Assembly: GCA_964016885.1 (NCBI GenBank)
Contig: OZ024740.1
Span: forward strand, 264,182,001-264,246,000
Length of the DNA stretch: 64,000 nt
From: Eledone cirrhosa
Taxonomy: Eukaryota
Reading direction: 5' to 3'
The translations under genes were made by a program, and so were the position numbers. Positions 109-56,882 of the stretch are shown here, one piece after another (position 1 is the first letter of the stretch; the number at the start of each line of letters is the position of its first letter). The notes under the pieces were generated by a model. It had not been told where the DNA came from. It ran no database searches and worked only from the letters and a program-made list of their open reading frames with translations.

Positions 109-2377
109 CTAAGACTTAAGAGAAGACGATACAAAAGAAATATACACAATTCAATAATATTCACATTATTCATTTATCATATCTTATTAGTTTTATTCGT
201 AGCTCTTTTCTCTGCTTTCTAAAGTGTGTTTAGGCTATTGTTATGGGATTAGAAGCTGCACAGAACTTTCCAAAGAAGAATGGAAGAAACGATTAAAACA
301 AAGAATTTGTTTCCGGATAGCTGCTTCGCCGTTGTATATTATAAGTGTGTGGAAATTATCAATGTTCTTGTATGTCTATGTTTATGTATGAATGTGTAGG
401 AAGTGTGGTTGGCGTCCATTTAGATGATGGAATATTAGATGTAAATTTGTGTGTACGAAGGTGTAAGTGTTTGTATGTGTGAATTGTTCTCCAATTGAGC
501 TTAATTAATTAATGGTGCAGCATAACTTTACATTTTATTTAAGCATATGTGTGTGCGTGTGCGCGTGTGTGTGTGTGTGTGTGTGTGTGTGTCTTCTCTG
601 TGTGTGTGTGTATACACTAATGTATTTAGTAATTAGCTAAAACTTTACTTTATAGATATATACATGCGTATATACATGCATATATATATATATATGTCTA
701 TTTGTTTGCACTTTCACTATAAATAGAAAAGAGAGAAACAGAACAGAGTGAGAGAGAGAGAGAGTGATGGAGAGAAAGAAATGGAGAAGGCGGAAAGTGA
801 ATGGGAGAGGTATAGAGAGAGATCAGTTTCATATTAATTATTATCCACTTAAGTGCCAGAAAGTTCCAAGATTGTTCTCCTTAATAACGGCATATACACA
901 CACAAGAATATCATTTCGGTTTCGTATTGTTATTACGGCAAAGTTGATTTGTAAATTACTTTATTAATTAATGTTAGTATAGCTGCACTTGATTGTTGAT
1001 ATAAATTTTCATTAAATTTATGATGTTTATCCGATTCAAATAAAACAAAACAAACAGAGTGATGAAAAAAACGAATGCCTTATTAAAAATCACGCTCAGA
1101 AAGTGTTGGAAGGTTAGGTGCTTCGAACACAGGCCCTTCATCGGGAAACGGAGAGTTTGGATAAGGAGAGATCAAGTACGTACATGAAAGTATGGAACAG
1201 GTTAATTATTTTAGGCCTGGTAGTTGAGTGGTCCGGCATTCGGGAGAAATGACACAAGTAACCCGGAACGAAGTTTTCACAATATATATATATATATATA
1301 TATATATATATATATATATATATATATATATATATAACAATGCCAGTGTTGAACAAACGGATGGCGATTTGTCATCGGCACGGCACAGCTTGTTCGTTCT
1401 CAAACGAATTGACTATTACTATTAATATTTGATGTAACACATACGTACATATGTATATATATATATATATAAATATATATATATATATATGTATATATAT
1501 ATATATATATATATATATGTGTACCCATTTTTTCACACACACACATATATATATATATATATATATATATATATATATATATATATATATATATATACAT
1601 ACATACTTATTAGCAACTAAATATAGTTACCATTCAGTTATAACGTGAGTAGGATAGAAACGTATGATAATATACATATTAGCGCATGGAGAATGTATCT
1701 GACATAGACTCATAAGGAAATTGAATTCTGAATATGTGAATGGGAAATATTCCAATCCACTGTGATCATCCTAGAAACTTAAAATCGCAACTCTATTTAA
1801 ATAGTATCATTTGTGCCTAACCTCGTATATTCAGTTTCATTAACAATTTTCCATAAATATATTAATATTTCCTTAAAATATCTTATATCTAATATTAAGA
1901 ATTTTAAGAAATCAAAATTATAACATTTATACTGGATTGGAAAATGATGACATTTATGTAATACCTATTAGCATTTAAATATGGTTACCGGGAGTTATAA
2001 AATAGCAGGAAAGAAACGTATATTAATATACATATTAAGGCATGAATCATATATCAGACTTAGAACCACGAGAAGAATTTTTGCCTCCATTCTCAATTGT
2101 AAATTAATTAATCCAGCAAATTTGAAATCGGATTATTCGGTAAGAAAATATTAAGTAACATTGACATTATATTAGAAAATTAATCAAACTCCAACAATAG
2201 GCCAGCAGCTTTAGCTAGTTTAATAACGTTAACAATTAAGACATTTCCAATGTTTACCCTATTTATCAATCCCTCTCTAATCCCATGTGTTTAACAATGC
2301 AGGGATGCTCACTCTTATAGCACTACACAACCTAAATATACACAGCAAAAGTTTACCACAGTAGATACTGGCTCCTG

Positions 2378-2742
2378 TACTCTCGGATACCAAATAAGGG
2401 GAATGGGGTTGGAATAAGCGGTGGGGTTAGAAAATCAATAGTTTTTCTAGGTTGACTCCCTCGATTTATTTTAAAGAACAGAATCATTCATTTAGTTTAC
2501 ATATTGAGACCTCAACCCATCCTATTTATTTTATAACGTATGAGATTTCATGTAACCTTCTTTTTCGCTTTGTATAAGGTTGTTTAATGTACAGAGAAAA
2601 TTAATTGTCGCAGGAGTGCTAACACTTAAAAAAATTCTGCCGGAGTAAGATTAGCAAACTTTCATAGAAAAGCTGGGGCTGGGTGGGGCATCTGAAAAAT
2701 GTATAAGCGGGGGGAAGGACGTATATTCGAAACCCTAGAGTA
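2378..2742. mobile_element. Degenerate Tc1/pogo-type MITE
   Basis: Imperfect termini TACTCTCGG...CCCTAGAGTA with TA at both ends. ATAAGCGG-G-rich motif near each end. Confidence 0.35.
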
Positions 2743-3099
2743 GAGATTTGGGATTATATCTTTTCTAACACAACAATATCCATGCAATAAATACTTTCAG
2801 GCAAGATTTTCAAACATTTTGTCTCAAAATTATCTATTGCCATTAATCTATTCAGCATTCATTTTTTTCTATGCTACCATCAACTTGACTACGAGTAAGA
2901 ACAAATGTGGTAAATATTTATGGATTTCTATATATCGAACTTCTACGTTATAGATAAACAAGAAACAATATGTATGCACAGACATGAACACACGAATGCA
3001 TGCATACATACACATATGCATGCATACATACATACAAATATACATATATGCATGCATTCATATATACATACATACATACATACATACATACATGCATAT

Positions 3100-5200
3100 A
3101 TACATAAATCCAAGATCAATGTGATAGATAGAACATCATCATAGATGAGCAAGCAGCTGGGAAGAAAGGTGTTTCAGTGTGTGCTGAACAACTAATTAAC
3201 GAAACCGTGATGTCAAATGTGAGATAACTTACAGTCTGACTGGACTACTGGAAAGCATTTGATTCTGTTCCCTACACTTGAATGATAGAGATTCTCCTAC
3301 TTGCTAAAACCCAGACATTATTATCAGAGCCATAGGGCGGTGGATGGGCTGTATCGGTAGAGGGTCGGACACCATGCCTTGACGCATAGAGTTACGGCCC
3401 TTGCCATTCTGTGTTCAAATCTCGCCGAGGTTAACTTTGTCTTTCATCCTTACGGGGCCGATAAAATAAAGTACCAGTAATGTACTGGGTATTTGCTGGC
3501 CTTGTGCCAATAGTAGAAACAATTATTATCAGAGCCATAGAAAACCTAACTTATTCTTGTTCTACTATCCTAAAGTTAAAGAACAAAGAAGGATTACTCT
3601 ATTTTCACTGATAAAAAGAATATCACAGGGATGTGTTTCAAGGAGACAGTCTCTCTGTGCTACTATTTATTCTGCCATTAAATCTCTTGTCCTTTCTGGT
3701 CAAGAAATGTGAAAGATACATTATTGTCTCACAGGACGACATAATTACGTACCTAACGAATAATTTCATTCTGGATTACCTAAAACTCTATGCCAAGAAA
3801 TATTATAAATGTTCATATAAGATTGTCAAAAGTGGAAAAACTATAATCTAGCAGCATTTTTATCAATGGCCGAACATTTTCACCGCCTAACTGACGAGGT
3901 GTTTTACCGATACTTAGGGATAGGAGAGAAGATGTCCTATGGTGATATATGTAACAAGGAACGCGTAACCAGGATATATTACTCCCAATTAAGAAACAAA
4001 ATCGTCATCTGAAATCTTTCTCTCCCAACACCAAGCTTTAGAATGATCGATTGGACGATATGCGAAATCCGAGCAATAGTTGTTAAAGCAGCACCGGTAA
4101 CTTCCACAACAACAGTGGCATAGACCACCTATACTTGAAAGGTAAGCAAGGAGAGAAAGGTCAAACATCTGGTCAGACAGCATTTGAATGTCACATCGTA
4201 TCCCCCTGACAACATCTACGAATCTCCAAGGGTAGGAGACCATCTATTGAGCAAGTATGTTTGCATAAGACAGATAAGATTATGAGAGTTTGGAAAGAAC
4301 TCCTTGAATACACCTTACATGATAATCATAAACGCGCACCTAAGGAAATTGTCAAGAAATACCGCAGTGAATCCATGGATAAAAAAACTGTATGCTTATC
4401 AGCAAAAAAAAATCATGCATGGGTATGTTGCCAGAAAGCTCCAGTGTAAGAGTAATATAGATAAGCAAAGTAGTCTATCTTGGACCAACCACCACTGCAT
4501 TGGTTCTGAATTTGAAGGATATGCTTTTGCAATCCAAGAACAGGAAAACAAAGCAAAATACATGATACACAAAGGTGATAGGGATGCAGGCAAAACAATT
4601 AGCTGTGAAAACAAATGCATACTCTGCAGAATTATCATGATGTCACTCATGTCATAAGCAGCTGTCCAAAGATGTAATCACGGTATATCTAGCTATGAGG
4701 CATGATGTAGTGGCCAAAATACTACACAATGCAATCCGTAGAAAAGATAACCTCGACGATAAACACTAAGAGTTACAGCATTGTGGAAGATAAATACGTA
4801 CATAATATGAAAGATTACCGGTGGAATGTTCCAGTCAAATCCCAAATAAAATGCAAGCATAACAGACCAGATGTAATCATATGGGACAAGAAAAAGAAGG
4901 CATACGCAGTAGTGAAAGTCAGCTGTGCAGCAGCTGCCAATATGATCTCAAAGATTAGTGAAAAGGAGAATATCTATGCAGAACTAATGAGAAATCTGCA
5001 GATATTCCACCCTGATTATACCTTCAGATGTACGCCTGTGATTATTGGGGTACTGGGGTATGTTAGTAACTGCTTCAATACAAATCTTGAGAAGCTGGGC
5101 TTCACAGGAATCGAAAGAACACAACTAGTTAGGAAATTACAAGTACAATCCATTAATGGAACAGTAAAGATATGTAAAACATTCCAAAATTCTGTATCTA
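3100..5200 (+). mobile_element. Decayed, 5'-truncated R4/Dong-like non-LTR retrotransposon (RT, CCHC, restriction-like endonuclease)
   Basis: LDYWKAFDSVP (~3240), FQGDSLS (3636), LDYLKLY, CILC..H..C..RHD (~4616-4705), HNRPD..(E/K)VS..K RLE motif in ORF 4729-5247. Many frameshifts. (CATA)n-like repeats on both sides. Confidence 0.85.
3336..3521 (+). mobile_element. tRNA-derived SINE inserted in the R4-like LINE
   Basis: A-box-like head and B box GTTCAAATC. Exact 19-bp TSD ATTATTATCAGAGCCATAG at 3317-3335 and 3522-3540. Same family at 53860, 55569 and 57708. Confidence 0.9.
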
Positions 5201-56110: not shown

Positions 56111-56452
56111 GGATATATATGTATATATATATCTATATATATATATATATATATATATATATATATATATATATATATATATATATATATATATATATAT
56201 ATGACACACACACACACACACACACACACACATATATATATATATATATATATATATATATATACATACATGAATATCTCTATATATATGGACATGTGGT
56301 TAGATTTCGTGCGTGTGTTTGTGTGTATGCGTATGTGTGGATTTTATCTATCTAGATAAATACCCGGATCTAGCTTGGGATAAATCGGGATAATGTTTGC
56401 TTTGATTTCTAGTAAATATGGACAACTTTTAATCATGTCAAAATTATATGTT

Positions 56453-56484
56453 ACTAGACCACCCGTGACCACTGACACGTCGGG
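56453..56484 (-). mobile_element. Possible Helitron 3' end
   Basis: CCCG..CGGG hairpin followed by TGGTCTAG|T on the minus strand. Confidence 0.4.
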
Positions 56485-56744
56485 AGATGTTCGCTTCAAA
56501 ATATATATTTTTTAAATCATGTTTACTTAAAAATTATTTTTAAGTAATTAGAATATACACACACATGTATATAATGTGAAATGAAATTAGAAGGACCATA
56601 TATATATACGTGTGTGTATGTATATATATATATGTGTGTATGTACCCGTGTGTGTATATGTATGCATGGGTGTCTGTGATCTAGATACACTGGCCATAGA
56701 CACACACACACATACTCATATATATAGATATATATATATATATA

Positions 56745-56882
56745 ACGAAGGAAATGTGGTAAGGAACCAGGTGGACCATAACGCGCCAAAGTACTCAATA
56801 CTTAGGGTAGTAGAGTGGGTAATAGGAACCAGTAAGACCCCGACGGCTGAGCTCAAGCCGTTTCGACGGCTAATTCTGCTAA
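56745..56882 (-). mobile_element. Short PLE-type 3' end with half hammerhead and tail motif
   Basis: GAAACGGCT tgagctc AGCCGTC, then ACTCTAC..TTGAGTACTT. A related fragment lies at 42283-42320. Confidence 0.5.

Follow-up and report, generated by a model that had tools for sequence, protein, structure and literature searches.

The stretch of DNA analysed here, the window, spans 64,000 nt of the Eledone cirrhosa genome (assembly GCA_964016885.1, contig OZ024740.1, positions 264,182,001 to 264,246,000, forward strand). It contains inverted insertions of Penelope-like elements, RT/GIY-YIG open reading frames and a series of element tails that share the bipartite motif RCTCY..WGAGYRCTC, treated below as a hairpin. 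Hairpin 1 opens the tail and hairpin 2 precedes the ATG. The features, in window positions, are:

1200..1233 (+), possible decayed copy of the motif, without relatives in the sample searched
7272-9497, family F2 inverted insertion, its other arm tail-less
9411..9460 (+), family F2 hairpin 1, with a long inner stem (z -4.3); hairpin 2 and a Hydra-type ORF lie in locus L210
9655..9679 (+), family F10 hairpin 1, B-like, with a single core mismatch; hairpin 2 lies in locus L139, where the ORF was not reached
13571..19678, inverted insertion of family A, whose minus arm stops tail-less at site 1 and whose plus arm carries the tail and stops at site 2
14665..17068 (-), family A RT/GIY-YIG ORF, frameshifted, with Hydra-type RWT (for RWK), DKT and CxCX5C
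17119..17140 (-), family A hairpin 2; this copy's 5' junction lies ~5 nt upstream
19482..19548 (+), predicted type-I hammerhead motif of family A with a short palindromic loop III, ~45 nt upstream of hairpin 1 (core-pattern match, stems drawn by eye; no Rfam match)
19593..19621 (+), family A hairpin 1, opening a tail that ends at ~19676; supported by read-through copies
19807..19843 (-), family F1 hairpin 1 in an older copy, with the inner +5 pair broken
26729..33603, inverted insertion of family B, with the tail on its minus arm and a tail-less plus arm
26771..26795 (-), family B hairpin 1, opening the tail
26889 (-) and 33518 (+), family B hammerhead cores from a pattern scan
30606..30615 (+), family B hairpin 2, of which this copy keeps only the 3' half (bulge, GAGY and RCT) and has lost the other strand at its junction (loci L061-L090 compared with L070)
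30648..32778 (+), family B RT/GIY-YIG ORF with RWK, DKT and CxCX5C, frameshifted near 32070
33731..33754 (-), family F1 hairpin 1; hairpin 2 and a Hydra-type ORF lie in locus L413
37365..37393 (+), hairpin 1 of an A-like inverted insertion that is older (33973-37448) and whose other arm lacks a tail
47434..47462 (-), family F12 hairpin 1; hairpin 2 and a Hydra-type ORF lie in locus L420
50454..50477 (-), family F11 hairpin 1, a covariance-model match (E 0.005)
56030..56053 (+), hairpin variant that lacks the trailing RCT (z -2.8), with five relatives ending ~60 nt downstream
56789..56816 (-), family F0 hairpin 1; hairpin 2 and a Hydra-type ORF lie in locus L251

A sequence-only reading of the window had placed the core of this motif at ten tail sites, and all ten carry it. 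The core also lies before both ATGs much as that reading proposed, 51 nt before 17068(-) at 17119-17140(-) and 33 nt before 30648(+) at 30608-30615(+). Its two weaker matches stand only in part: the one at 56045 is the variant hairpin listed above, and the one at 1224 has no RCTC half.

The Hydra clade, as described by Craig et al. (2021, PMC8557442), combines a C-terminal GIY-YIG domain, RWK, DKT and CxCX5C motifs, a hammerhead, (TA)n targets, inverted insertions and a tail that is often one-sided, and the same features are found in the present elements. The N-terminal motifs are RWK and DKT in family B and RWT and DKT in family A; at the RWK position, F0 and F34 have RWK, F1 and F2 RWR, and F12 RWH. 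Both the A and B translations contain the CxCX5C linker as well as a C-terminal GIY-YIG domain that lacks the CCHH cysteine pair and has CxxC and CxH near its end. Pfam gave no match for the Hydra ORFs of the window. The predicted structure of the family B ORF (pLDDT 91) has telomerase RTs as its top fold matches. A core-pattern scan predicts a hammerhead core in the 3' region, and the insertion ends place the elements in (TA)n. The family A tandem period of ~3.66 kb exceeds the length of less than 3 kb that is 'generally' seen in the clade, and the tails, at ~55-90 nt, are longer than the published 30-40 nt (PMC8557442). The motif had been described as a conserved cis-signal shared by unrelated families; the signal is indeed conserved, but every tail family for which the ORF was reached is Hydra-type. 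The same window contains a Penelope-like family outside the Hydra clade whose arms, tailed and tail-less alike, have no copy of the motif.

Compared across families, the motif behaves as a real, small bulged hairpin and not as a two-box promoter. RCTC would pair with GAGY, with a variable inner stem between them, a 2-nt bulge and an RCT following. Because the core pairs are nearly invariant and were demanded by the search, they provide no evidence of pairing; the inner pairs do. Among 60 relative families, the inner pair +5/-3 is Watson-Crick in 72 of 75 cases (53 C-G, 19 T-A), compared with 43.9±3.3 after shuffling, and the next two inner pairs are Watson-Crick in 43/69 (shuffled 20.6) and 26/40 (shuffled 11.0). 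In the same count, slid registers pair at the chance level. The shuffle ignores relatedness among families, and in an equal-length subset of 20 sequences, 36 of 500 shuffles reached the covariation score. In Eledone, the covariation evidence consists of the ten window sites, nine of which have a Watson-Crick +5/-3 pair. The unpaired RCT and the bulge base are conserved among the relatives. Counts of G-U versus A-C at the three inner pairs (2:0, 3:4 and 4:1) barely set the strand on which pairing occurs. The isolated hairpins are weak, mostly -2 to -6 kcal/mol, with z below -2 in only 2 of 14 window stretches. A GAGY-RCTC palindrome or kissing interaction was ruled out, since Y and the base that follows the core do not covary (GAGC before ACT is the dominant combination).

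A covariance model was built from 20 equal-length hairpins, all from metagenome relatives, because MAFFT placed the 5' strand wrongly when given 56 hairpins. Its best match is 17119-17140(-), with an E value of 8e-4, and it returns five matches at E 1 in 100 kb. The model is weak on long loops, missing 9411, 19593(+), 19807 and 33731 at E 10, where chance matches were given. No Rfam family matched the window at gathering score, and in five junction loci the only Rfam matches were microsatellite-driven miRNAs below that score.

At intact junctions of Hydra-clade elements the order is hammerhead, hairpin 1, hairpin 2 and ATG, with the hammerhead 40-120 nt upstream of hairpin 1. Twin hairpins are present in seven of the eight tail families of the window and, among the 36 metagenome families whose 5' sequence reaches far enough, in 26; nine others have one hairpin and one has none. 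No read-through junction was recovered for F11, and the high-copy family F9 gave three matches, none of them a junction. The copy before the ATG and the copy in the tail, which had been taken for the same motif, are two different hairpins in series at intact junctions, and the half-site at 30588, proposed as the partner of the family B core, is not its partner: in intact copies the real 5' strand is found further upstream, and the window copy lacks it.

This arrangement bears on the proposal that the motif is an internal core promoter, an initiator plus downstream element, that has been duplicated. Its position upstream of the ATG would suit a promoter, as would the 4 of 30 family A copies whose 5' ends lie at most 16 nt upstream of hairpin 2, and a 34-bp repeat of Drosophila Penelope has been suggested as a basal promoter (PMC2377424). 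That repeat is, however, dispensable for normal initiation (PMC2377424). The motif cannot generally mark the 5' end of the element, as had been thought, when 24/30 family A and 22/30 family B copies extend at least 45 nt upstream beyond hairpin 1. Nor is the spacing of its halves short and fixed, as initiator and downstream element would be: the gap is 8-19 nt in relatives, ~38 nt at 9411-9460 and ~70 nt in family B hairpin 2, and it varies because it is the hairpin loop. With inner pairs that covary and a motif that marks the 3' ends of insertions, we regard a core promoter as very improbable.

The ends of insertions are bimodal. Tail-less arms stop at the foot of hairpin 1, directly upstream of the motif as the sequence-only reading had noted, and tailed arms stop a few bases before hairpin 2. 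With queries placed upstream of both sites, 13 of 30 family A ends fall at site 1 and 17 at site 2, and family B gives 13 at site 1, 16 at site 2 and one read-through; no end in either family lies between the sites. The 'tail' is the interval between two insertion-end sites. The ends run into (TA)n, and TA is present at -8 to -3 of the hairpin in 61 of 69 cases, compared with 21 and 19 in control windows; TA microhomology blurs the exact end offsets.

The two kinds of end are distributed strictly between the arms. Of 58 inverted insertions that could be classified, 57 have one arm ending at site 1 and the other at site 2 (A, 20/21; B, 16/16; F0, 15/15; F2, 6/6). The 58 exclude a repeated F2 row and five pairs, three of F0 and two of F2, in which an end could not be classified; for family B, rows marked -17 were dropped, as they arose from an internal duplicate in the 3' UTR. 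Both arms of an inverted insertion belong to one sub-family, and arms are closer within than between insertions in 20/20 cases for A and 14/15 for F0.

Enrichment of the motif before (TA)n is seen beyond the window as well. Across 60 genome stretches of 10 kb, evenly spaced, 55 of 116 bipartite matches start 60-139 nt before a (TA)n run and 6 start at 140-299 nt. The score of the core in the 25-85 nt zone is 21, compared with 3.8±2.9 for its 2520 permutations, and ranks fourth; the three permutations above it are apparently shifted forms of the same motif. The positional enrichment over background expected for a genuine signal is observed. A search of the whole genome for the double motif (1803 matches; controls, 316) was swamped by one satellite, so its total does not serve as a count.

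Two alternative explanations place the role of the hairpins in the RNA. The first is that they serve mainly in cap-independent translation or stability of the hammerhead-cut RNA, with a secondary link to insertion ends. As this would predict, every family examined has both hairpins downstream of the hammerhead cut and upstream of the ATG, but the explanation does not account for insertions that stop a few bases short of each hairpin, for the TA patch or for the rule of one arm per site, and we consider it highly unlikely. The second is that a host nuclease or a small ribozyme cleaves the RNA, or forms its 3' end, just upstream of each hairpin, and that ordinary reverse transcription, primed at the end of the RNA, works from the two ends so formed. 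A short fixed offset with a TA patch at both sites is consistent with such cleavage, as are the conserved RCT and bulge base. Two independent RNA ends, however, would not by themselves yield one arm of each kind so regularly; a hammerhead is already present 40-60 nt upstream, and neither the window nor the five junction loci gave an Rfam ribozyme match. RNA cleavage therefore appears quite unlikely.

A close functional parallel is PAc, a Poseidon element of Anolis studied in vitro (Frangieh et al. 2024, PMC11167929). There, reverse transcription starts internally at two sites that bound the tail, both strands of an AT-rich target are cut and extended, RNA 3' of the starts is required and a dimer is predicted, all of which resembles the arrangement that we propose for Hydra elements. 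The PAc starts differ in lying inside the ORF, in an AC-rich stem-loop; the passages of PMC11167929 on these starts describe no repeated signal, and the ~95-nt stretch in its Fig. S1 contains no RCTC/GAGY pair by eye. The PAc start site shares no homology with the cut DNA and has no need of target homology, unlike the TA patch here, and no strand bias of start sites was seen in vitro (PMC11167929).

The PAc results also bear on a resolution at the DNA level, in which GIY-YIG would recognise the hairpins in a longer intermediate, where the DNA is single-stranded or extruded, and cut just upstream, so that the ends are resolution sites and not starts. The tail has been ascribed to EN-mediated resolution (PMC8557442), earlier work cited in PMC11167929 found that the Penelope endonuclease requires the tail sequence, the strand polarity of the pairing is weak, and resolution also predicts one arm per site. 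On the other hand, the Poseidon tail ends coincide with RT starts on RNA in vitro (PMC11167929), and a one-sided bulge with loops of 8-70 nt is ill-suited to recognition in duplex DNA. We judge DNA-level resolution unlikely.

The twin hairpin probably acts in RNA instead, as a docking site that positions the element's RT to start just 5' of each copy, once per nicked target strand. The sequence-only reading had offered a binding site for the RT/GIY-YIG protein as its second possibility; that idea becomes our best model, with the site taken to be a folded single strand, most likely RNA, that is present twice. Small structured RNAs that position an RT include the telomerase RNA template boundary with CR4/5, the R2 3' UTR and hepadnavirus epsilon. 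The hairpins are like these in that a small structured RNA beside the template would set the start of copying, and the nearest solved folds of the family B protein are telomerase RTs; they are unlike them in being duplicated, lying 3' of the start and apparently serving both target strands. A conserved structure with covariation (weaker on the 20-sequence subset) and a fixed position relative to cDNA ends are both found here. Penelope pseudo-LTRs have minimal type-I hammerheads in the same region of the element (Cervera and de la Pena 2014, PMC4209133), but the hairpins are found downstream of the cut site and contain no hammerhead core.

Two-ended target-primed reverse transcription, whereby twin RNA hairpins dock two RT-endonuclease subunits and each subunit primes from one of the two nicked strands of a (TA)n target, is a specific form of this model that we hold to be evenly balanced between right and wrong. 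In the docking model, two protein molecules, probably a dimer by analogy with the one predicted for PAc, would occupy hairpins 1 and 2, and their GIY-YIG domains would nick both strands of the target. Each 3'-OH would pair with the TA patch before one hairpin, and reverse transcription would start just 5' of each, once per nicked strand. The two cDNAs would grow inwards and join head to head; that from site 2 would copy hairpin 1 and the spacer, which make up the tail, and that from site 1 would lack them. Making two cDNAs from one RNA would need strand displacement or a second template. A role of the hairpins at the enzyme's start sites would therefore explain the puzzling tail, and the need for partial tandems in further transposition would follow from the presence of both hairpins at tandem junctions only.

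For other clades, a tail, its restriction to one side and two internal starts have already been published. We found no description of the twin hairpin; the sections of PMC8557442 consulted describe no such motif, and the word 'hairpin' is absent from its main text. Published consensus sequences contain it unannotated: Hydra-1_Ajap opens with both hairpins, Hydra-2_Ajap has hairpin 1, and Hydra-1_Crog has, by eye, diverged hairpin copies with one compensatory core change.

RNA recognition by Penelope-like elements, the one-sided tail and the inverted arms are long-standing puzzles. To our knowledge, the only in vitro study of a Penelope-like element found two internal starts and left the signal undefined. 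A duplicated conserved hairpin with a strict pattern of one arm per site lends itself to direct mutational and structural tests, and with the hairpin as a marker, Hydra elements and the short elements derived from them can be annotated. It is also a candidate for a minimal RNA handle on an RT from the sister group of telomerase. If the two-ended reading is true, the Penelope tail, the inverted insertions and the tandem-copy requirement would have one cause, and the telomerase sister group would have a portable RNA recognition element of ~25 nt.

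In a window that is part of a 3.0-Gb, (TA)n-rich animal genome and contains several Penelope-like retrotransposons, the sequence-only reading had reported a bipartite core (RCTC...GAGY followed by RCT) shared by tails and 5' ends. The core is present at every site it named; of its two weaker matches, the one at 56030-56053 stands as a variant and the one at 1224 is a doubtful decayed copy. Positional enrichment over background also holds outside the window. In genome samples taken at even spacing (600 kb in all), the core ranks fourth among its 2520 permutations (21 matches versus 3.8 ± 2.9), and 55 of 116 bipartite matches start 60-139 nt upstream of a (TA)n run, with 6 at 140-299 nt. 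Other repeats in the window are:

3334-3529, 53784-54052, 55569-55755 and 57701-57799: copies of F9, a very high-copy short repeat with a hammerhead-like part (also at loci L174 and L187)
20091-21785 and 38971-40639: a Penelope-like family from outside the Hydra clade; its arms, some with a tail and some without, are ∼70 nt apart
22709-24476, minus strand: a broken Penelope-like element with Pfam matches to RT and GIY-YIG and a cysteine-rich linker, which we take to be Neptune-like
45745-46624: a minisatellite with units of 27/32 bp

The core motif folds as a hairpin. RCTC and GAGY are reverse-complementary, and all 10 tail sites form hairpins of modest energy when folded alone, with RCTC-GAGY pairing in nine and a core mismatch at 9655. 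As an independent sample we used 78 relatives on metagenome contigs (60 families at 80% nucleotide identity), where the strict core is concentrated within 150 nt upstream of the ORF (102 matches), with a second concentration towards the 3' end. Watson-Crick pairing links the base that follows RCTC to the base that precedes a 2-nt bulge in 72 of 75 hairpins (53 C-G, 19 T-A) versus 43.9 ± 3.3 after shuffling, a comparison in which the core pairs are demanded by the search itself and kinship among relatives is not taken into account. The next inner pairs are Watson-Crick in 43/69 (20.6 shuffled) and then 26/40 (11.0 shuffled), shifted registers of the 75 hairpins pair at chance level, and every one of the 75 starts its bulge with T. 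The upstream class alone is paired in 30 of 30 cases (17 T-A, 13 C-G). Twenty hairpins of equal length vary little, and their covariation score was equalled in 36 of 500 shuffles; a covariance model built solely from those 20 relatives finds its best window match at 17119-17146 on the minus strand (E = 8e-4), with 50454 second.

The tail copy had been likened to the 5' copy. Copies elsewhere in the genome place the two in series within one junction, in the order hammerhead, hairpin 1, spacer, hairpin 2, ATG. The same order is found in the families with tails at 56789, 9451, 19807/33731 and 47434, and for the tail at 9670, there in a stretch analysed that does not extend to the ORF. Seven of the eight window tail families thus have twin hairpins; searching genome copies of the family with the tail at 50454 yielded no twin-hairpin junction. 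Two hairpins, spaced 55-83 nt apart, occur in 26 of the 36 metagenome families with enough 5' sequence. Read by eye, the published sea-cucumber consensus Hydra-1_Ajap has both hairpins at its start and a published copepod Hydra consensus has diverged versions. Hairpins also occur in tandem repeats: an F0-related 58-bp satellite at 14.233-14.243 Mb of G000:C1 (L252-L280) has one hairpin plus spacer as its unit, and a retrozyme-like ∼604-bp array (L100:19-2700) carries hairpin 1, a degenerate hairpin and another intact one.

The two hairpins mark one insertion end each. For queries set upstream of both sites, the best 30 loci of family A end at the foot of hairpin 1 (13) or 4-6 nt before hairpin 2 (17), and those of family B at site 1 (13) or site 2 (16), with one read-through; none ends between the sites. 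Similarity to the (TA)n target makes the exact offsets imprecise. Among 13 metagenome loci whose 3' end is visible, the ones with a junction of their own for comparison stop before hairpin 1 (L333, L343 and L348) or before hairpin 2 (L294 and L355). Of 69 hairpins, 61 have a TA dinucleotide 3-8 nt upstream (control windows, 21 and 19). Because insertions stop just before one hairpin or the other, the tail is the interval between them. A role for the hairpins as promoter might account for the 4 of 30 family A copies whose 5' ends lie just upstream of hairpin 2, but 24/30 A and 22/30 B copies reach well upstream, and a Drosophila 34-bp repeat considered for such a role was found dispensable (PMC2377424); we regard this role as very improbable.

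Two further observations concern ends. In the 5' junctions of L056 and L079, short units that join bases from around the start sites occur several times over (in L056 a unit of ∼16 nt is present five times), a pattern reminiscent of telomerase-like re-copying or of jumping from one site to the other. About 90 local F9 copies stop just before a hairpin-1-type motif that is visible in rare tailed copies; a search for an F9 junction copy found none, and F9 is possibly a non-autonomous passenger.

In inverted insertions the two arms end at different sites, one arm per site, in 20/21 cases for family A, 15/15 for F0, 6/6 classifiable for F2 and 16/16 for B (some B loci were chosen for carrying a tail, so that just one of their arms was predetermined), whereas independent choice would leave about half mixed. 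Arm identity is higher within than between insertions in family A (0.974 versus 0.941; 20 of 20) and F0 (0.957 versus 0.886; 14 of 15), consistent with the arms sharing one template lineage; later conversion could contribute. In the palindromic loop III of the family A hammerhead, the base 5 nt before the predicted cut (window 19538) is G or T. It differs between arms, in either arm, in 14 of 19 inverted insertions (e.g. L114, L115, L117, L118, L121, L123), and is G in 13/13 read-through junctions; this arm-to-arm difference was not seen in families B and F0, and the base may be a hotspot of RT errors. Many inverted insertions are miniature, 144-560 bp long (L091, L106, L110, L191, L208 and others); they consist of the hammerhead region and tail only and would be mistaken for MITEs.

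Hairpin structure, duplication, end positions, TA patch and the one-arm-per-site rule are the observed base of a model that we consider probable: the element's protein would bind hairpins 1 and 2 in RNA, nick both strands of the (TA)n target and begin cDNA synthesis just 5' of each hairpin, with a single cDNA for each target strand, and the two cDNAs would join head to head. The hairpins might instead be where insertions are resolved at the DNA level, which seems unlikely, or where RNA ends form, which seems slightly less likely again; that they serve translation is as improbable as the promoter role. The first 479 residues of the family B protein give a confident structure model (pLDDT 91) whose top fold matches are telomerase RTs, in line with expectation for the Penelope-like class. 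According to PMC11167929, a Poseidon-clade element of Anolis has two internal starts that bound the tail, with both strands cut and extended, a need for RNA downstream of the starts, and a predicted dimer. It offers a precedent for the two starts proposed for Hydra; it departs from the Hydra case in that target homology is not needed and no strand bias is reported.

The signal looks specific to the Hydra clade: none of six exact core 8-mers had a match assignable to a terminal hairpin among the Naiad and Chlamys sequences of the supplement that holds the Hydra consensus, and the RCTC/GAGY motif is absent from the non-Hydra window family. Earlier work had described the Penelope tail, the fact that it sits at one end, and inverted insertions (PMC8557442 and PMC3846280), as well as hammerheads and possible circular templates (PMC4209133 and PMC6765202). 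The motif was not found in the parts examined of a retrozyme preprint and PMC5737381, and a search of mostly open-access literature, without Arkhipova 2006 or the Repbase reports, found the duplicated hairpin at these ends nowhere described. The twin hairpin, apparently undescribed so far, is real and clade-wide, and it explains both insertion ends of Hydra elements.
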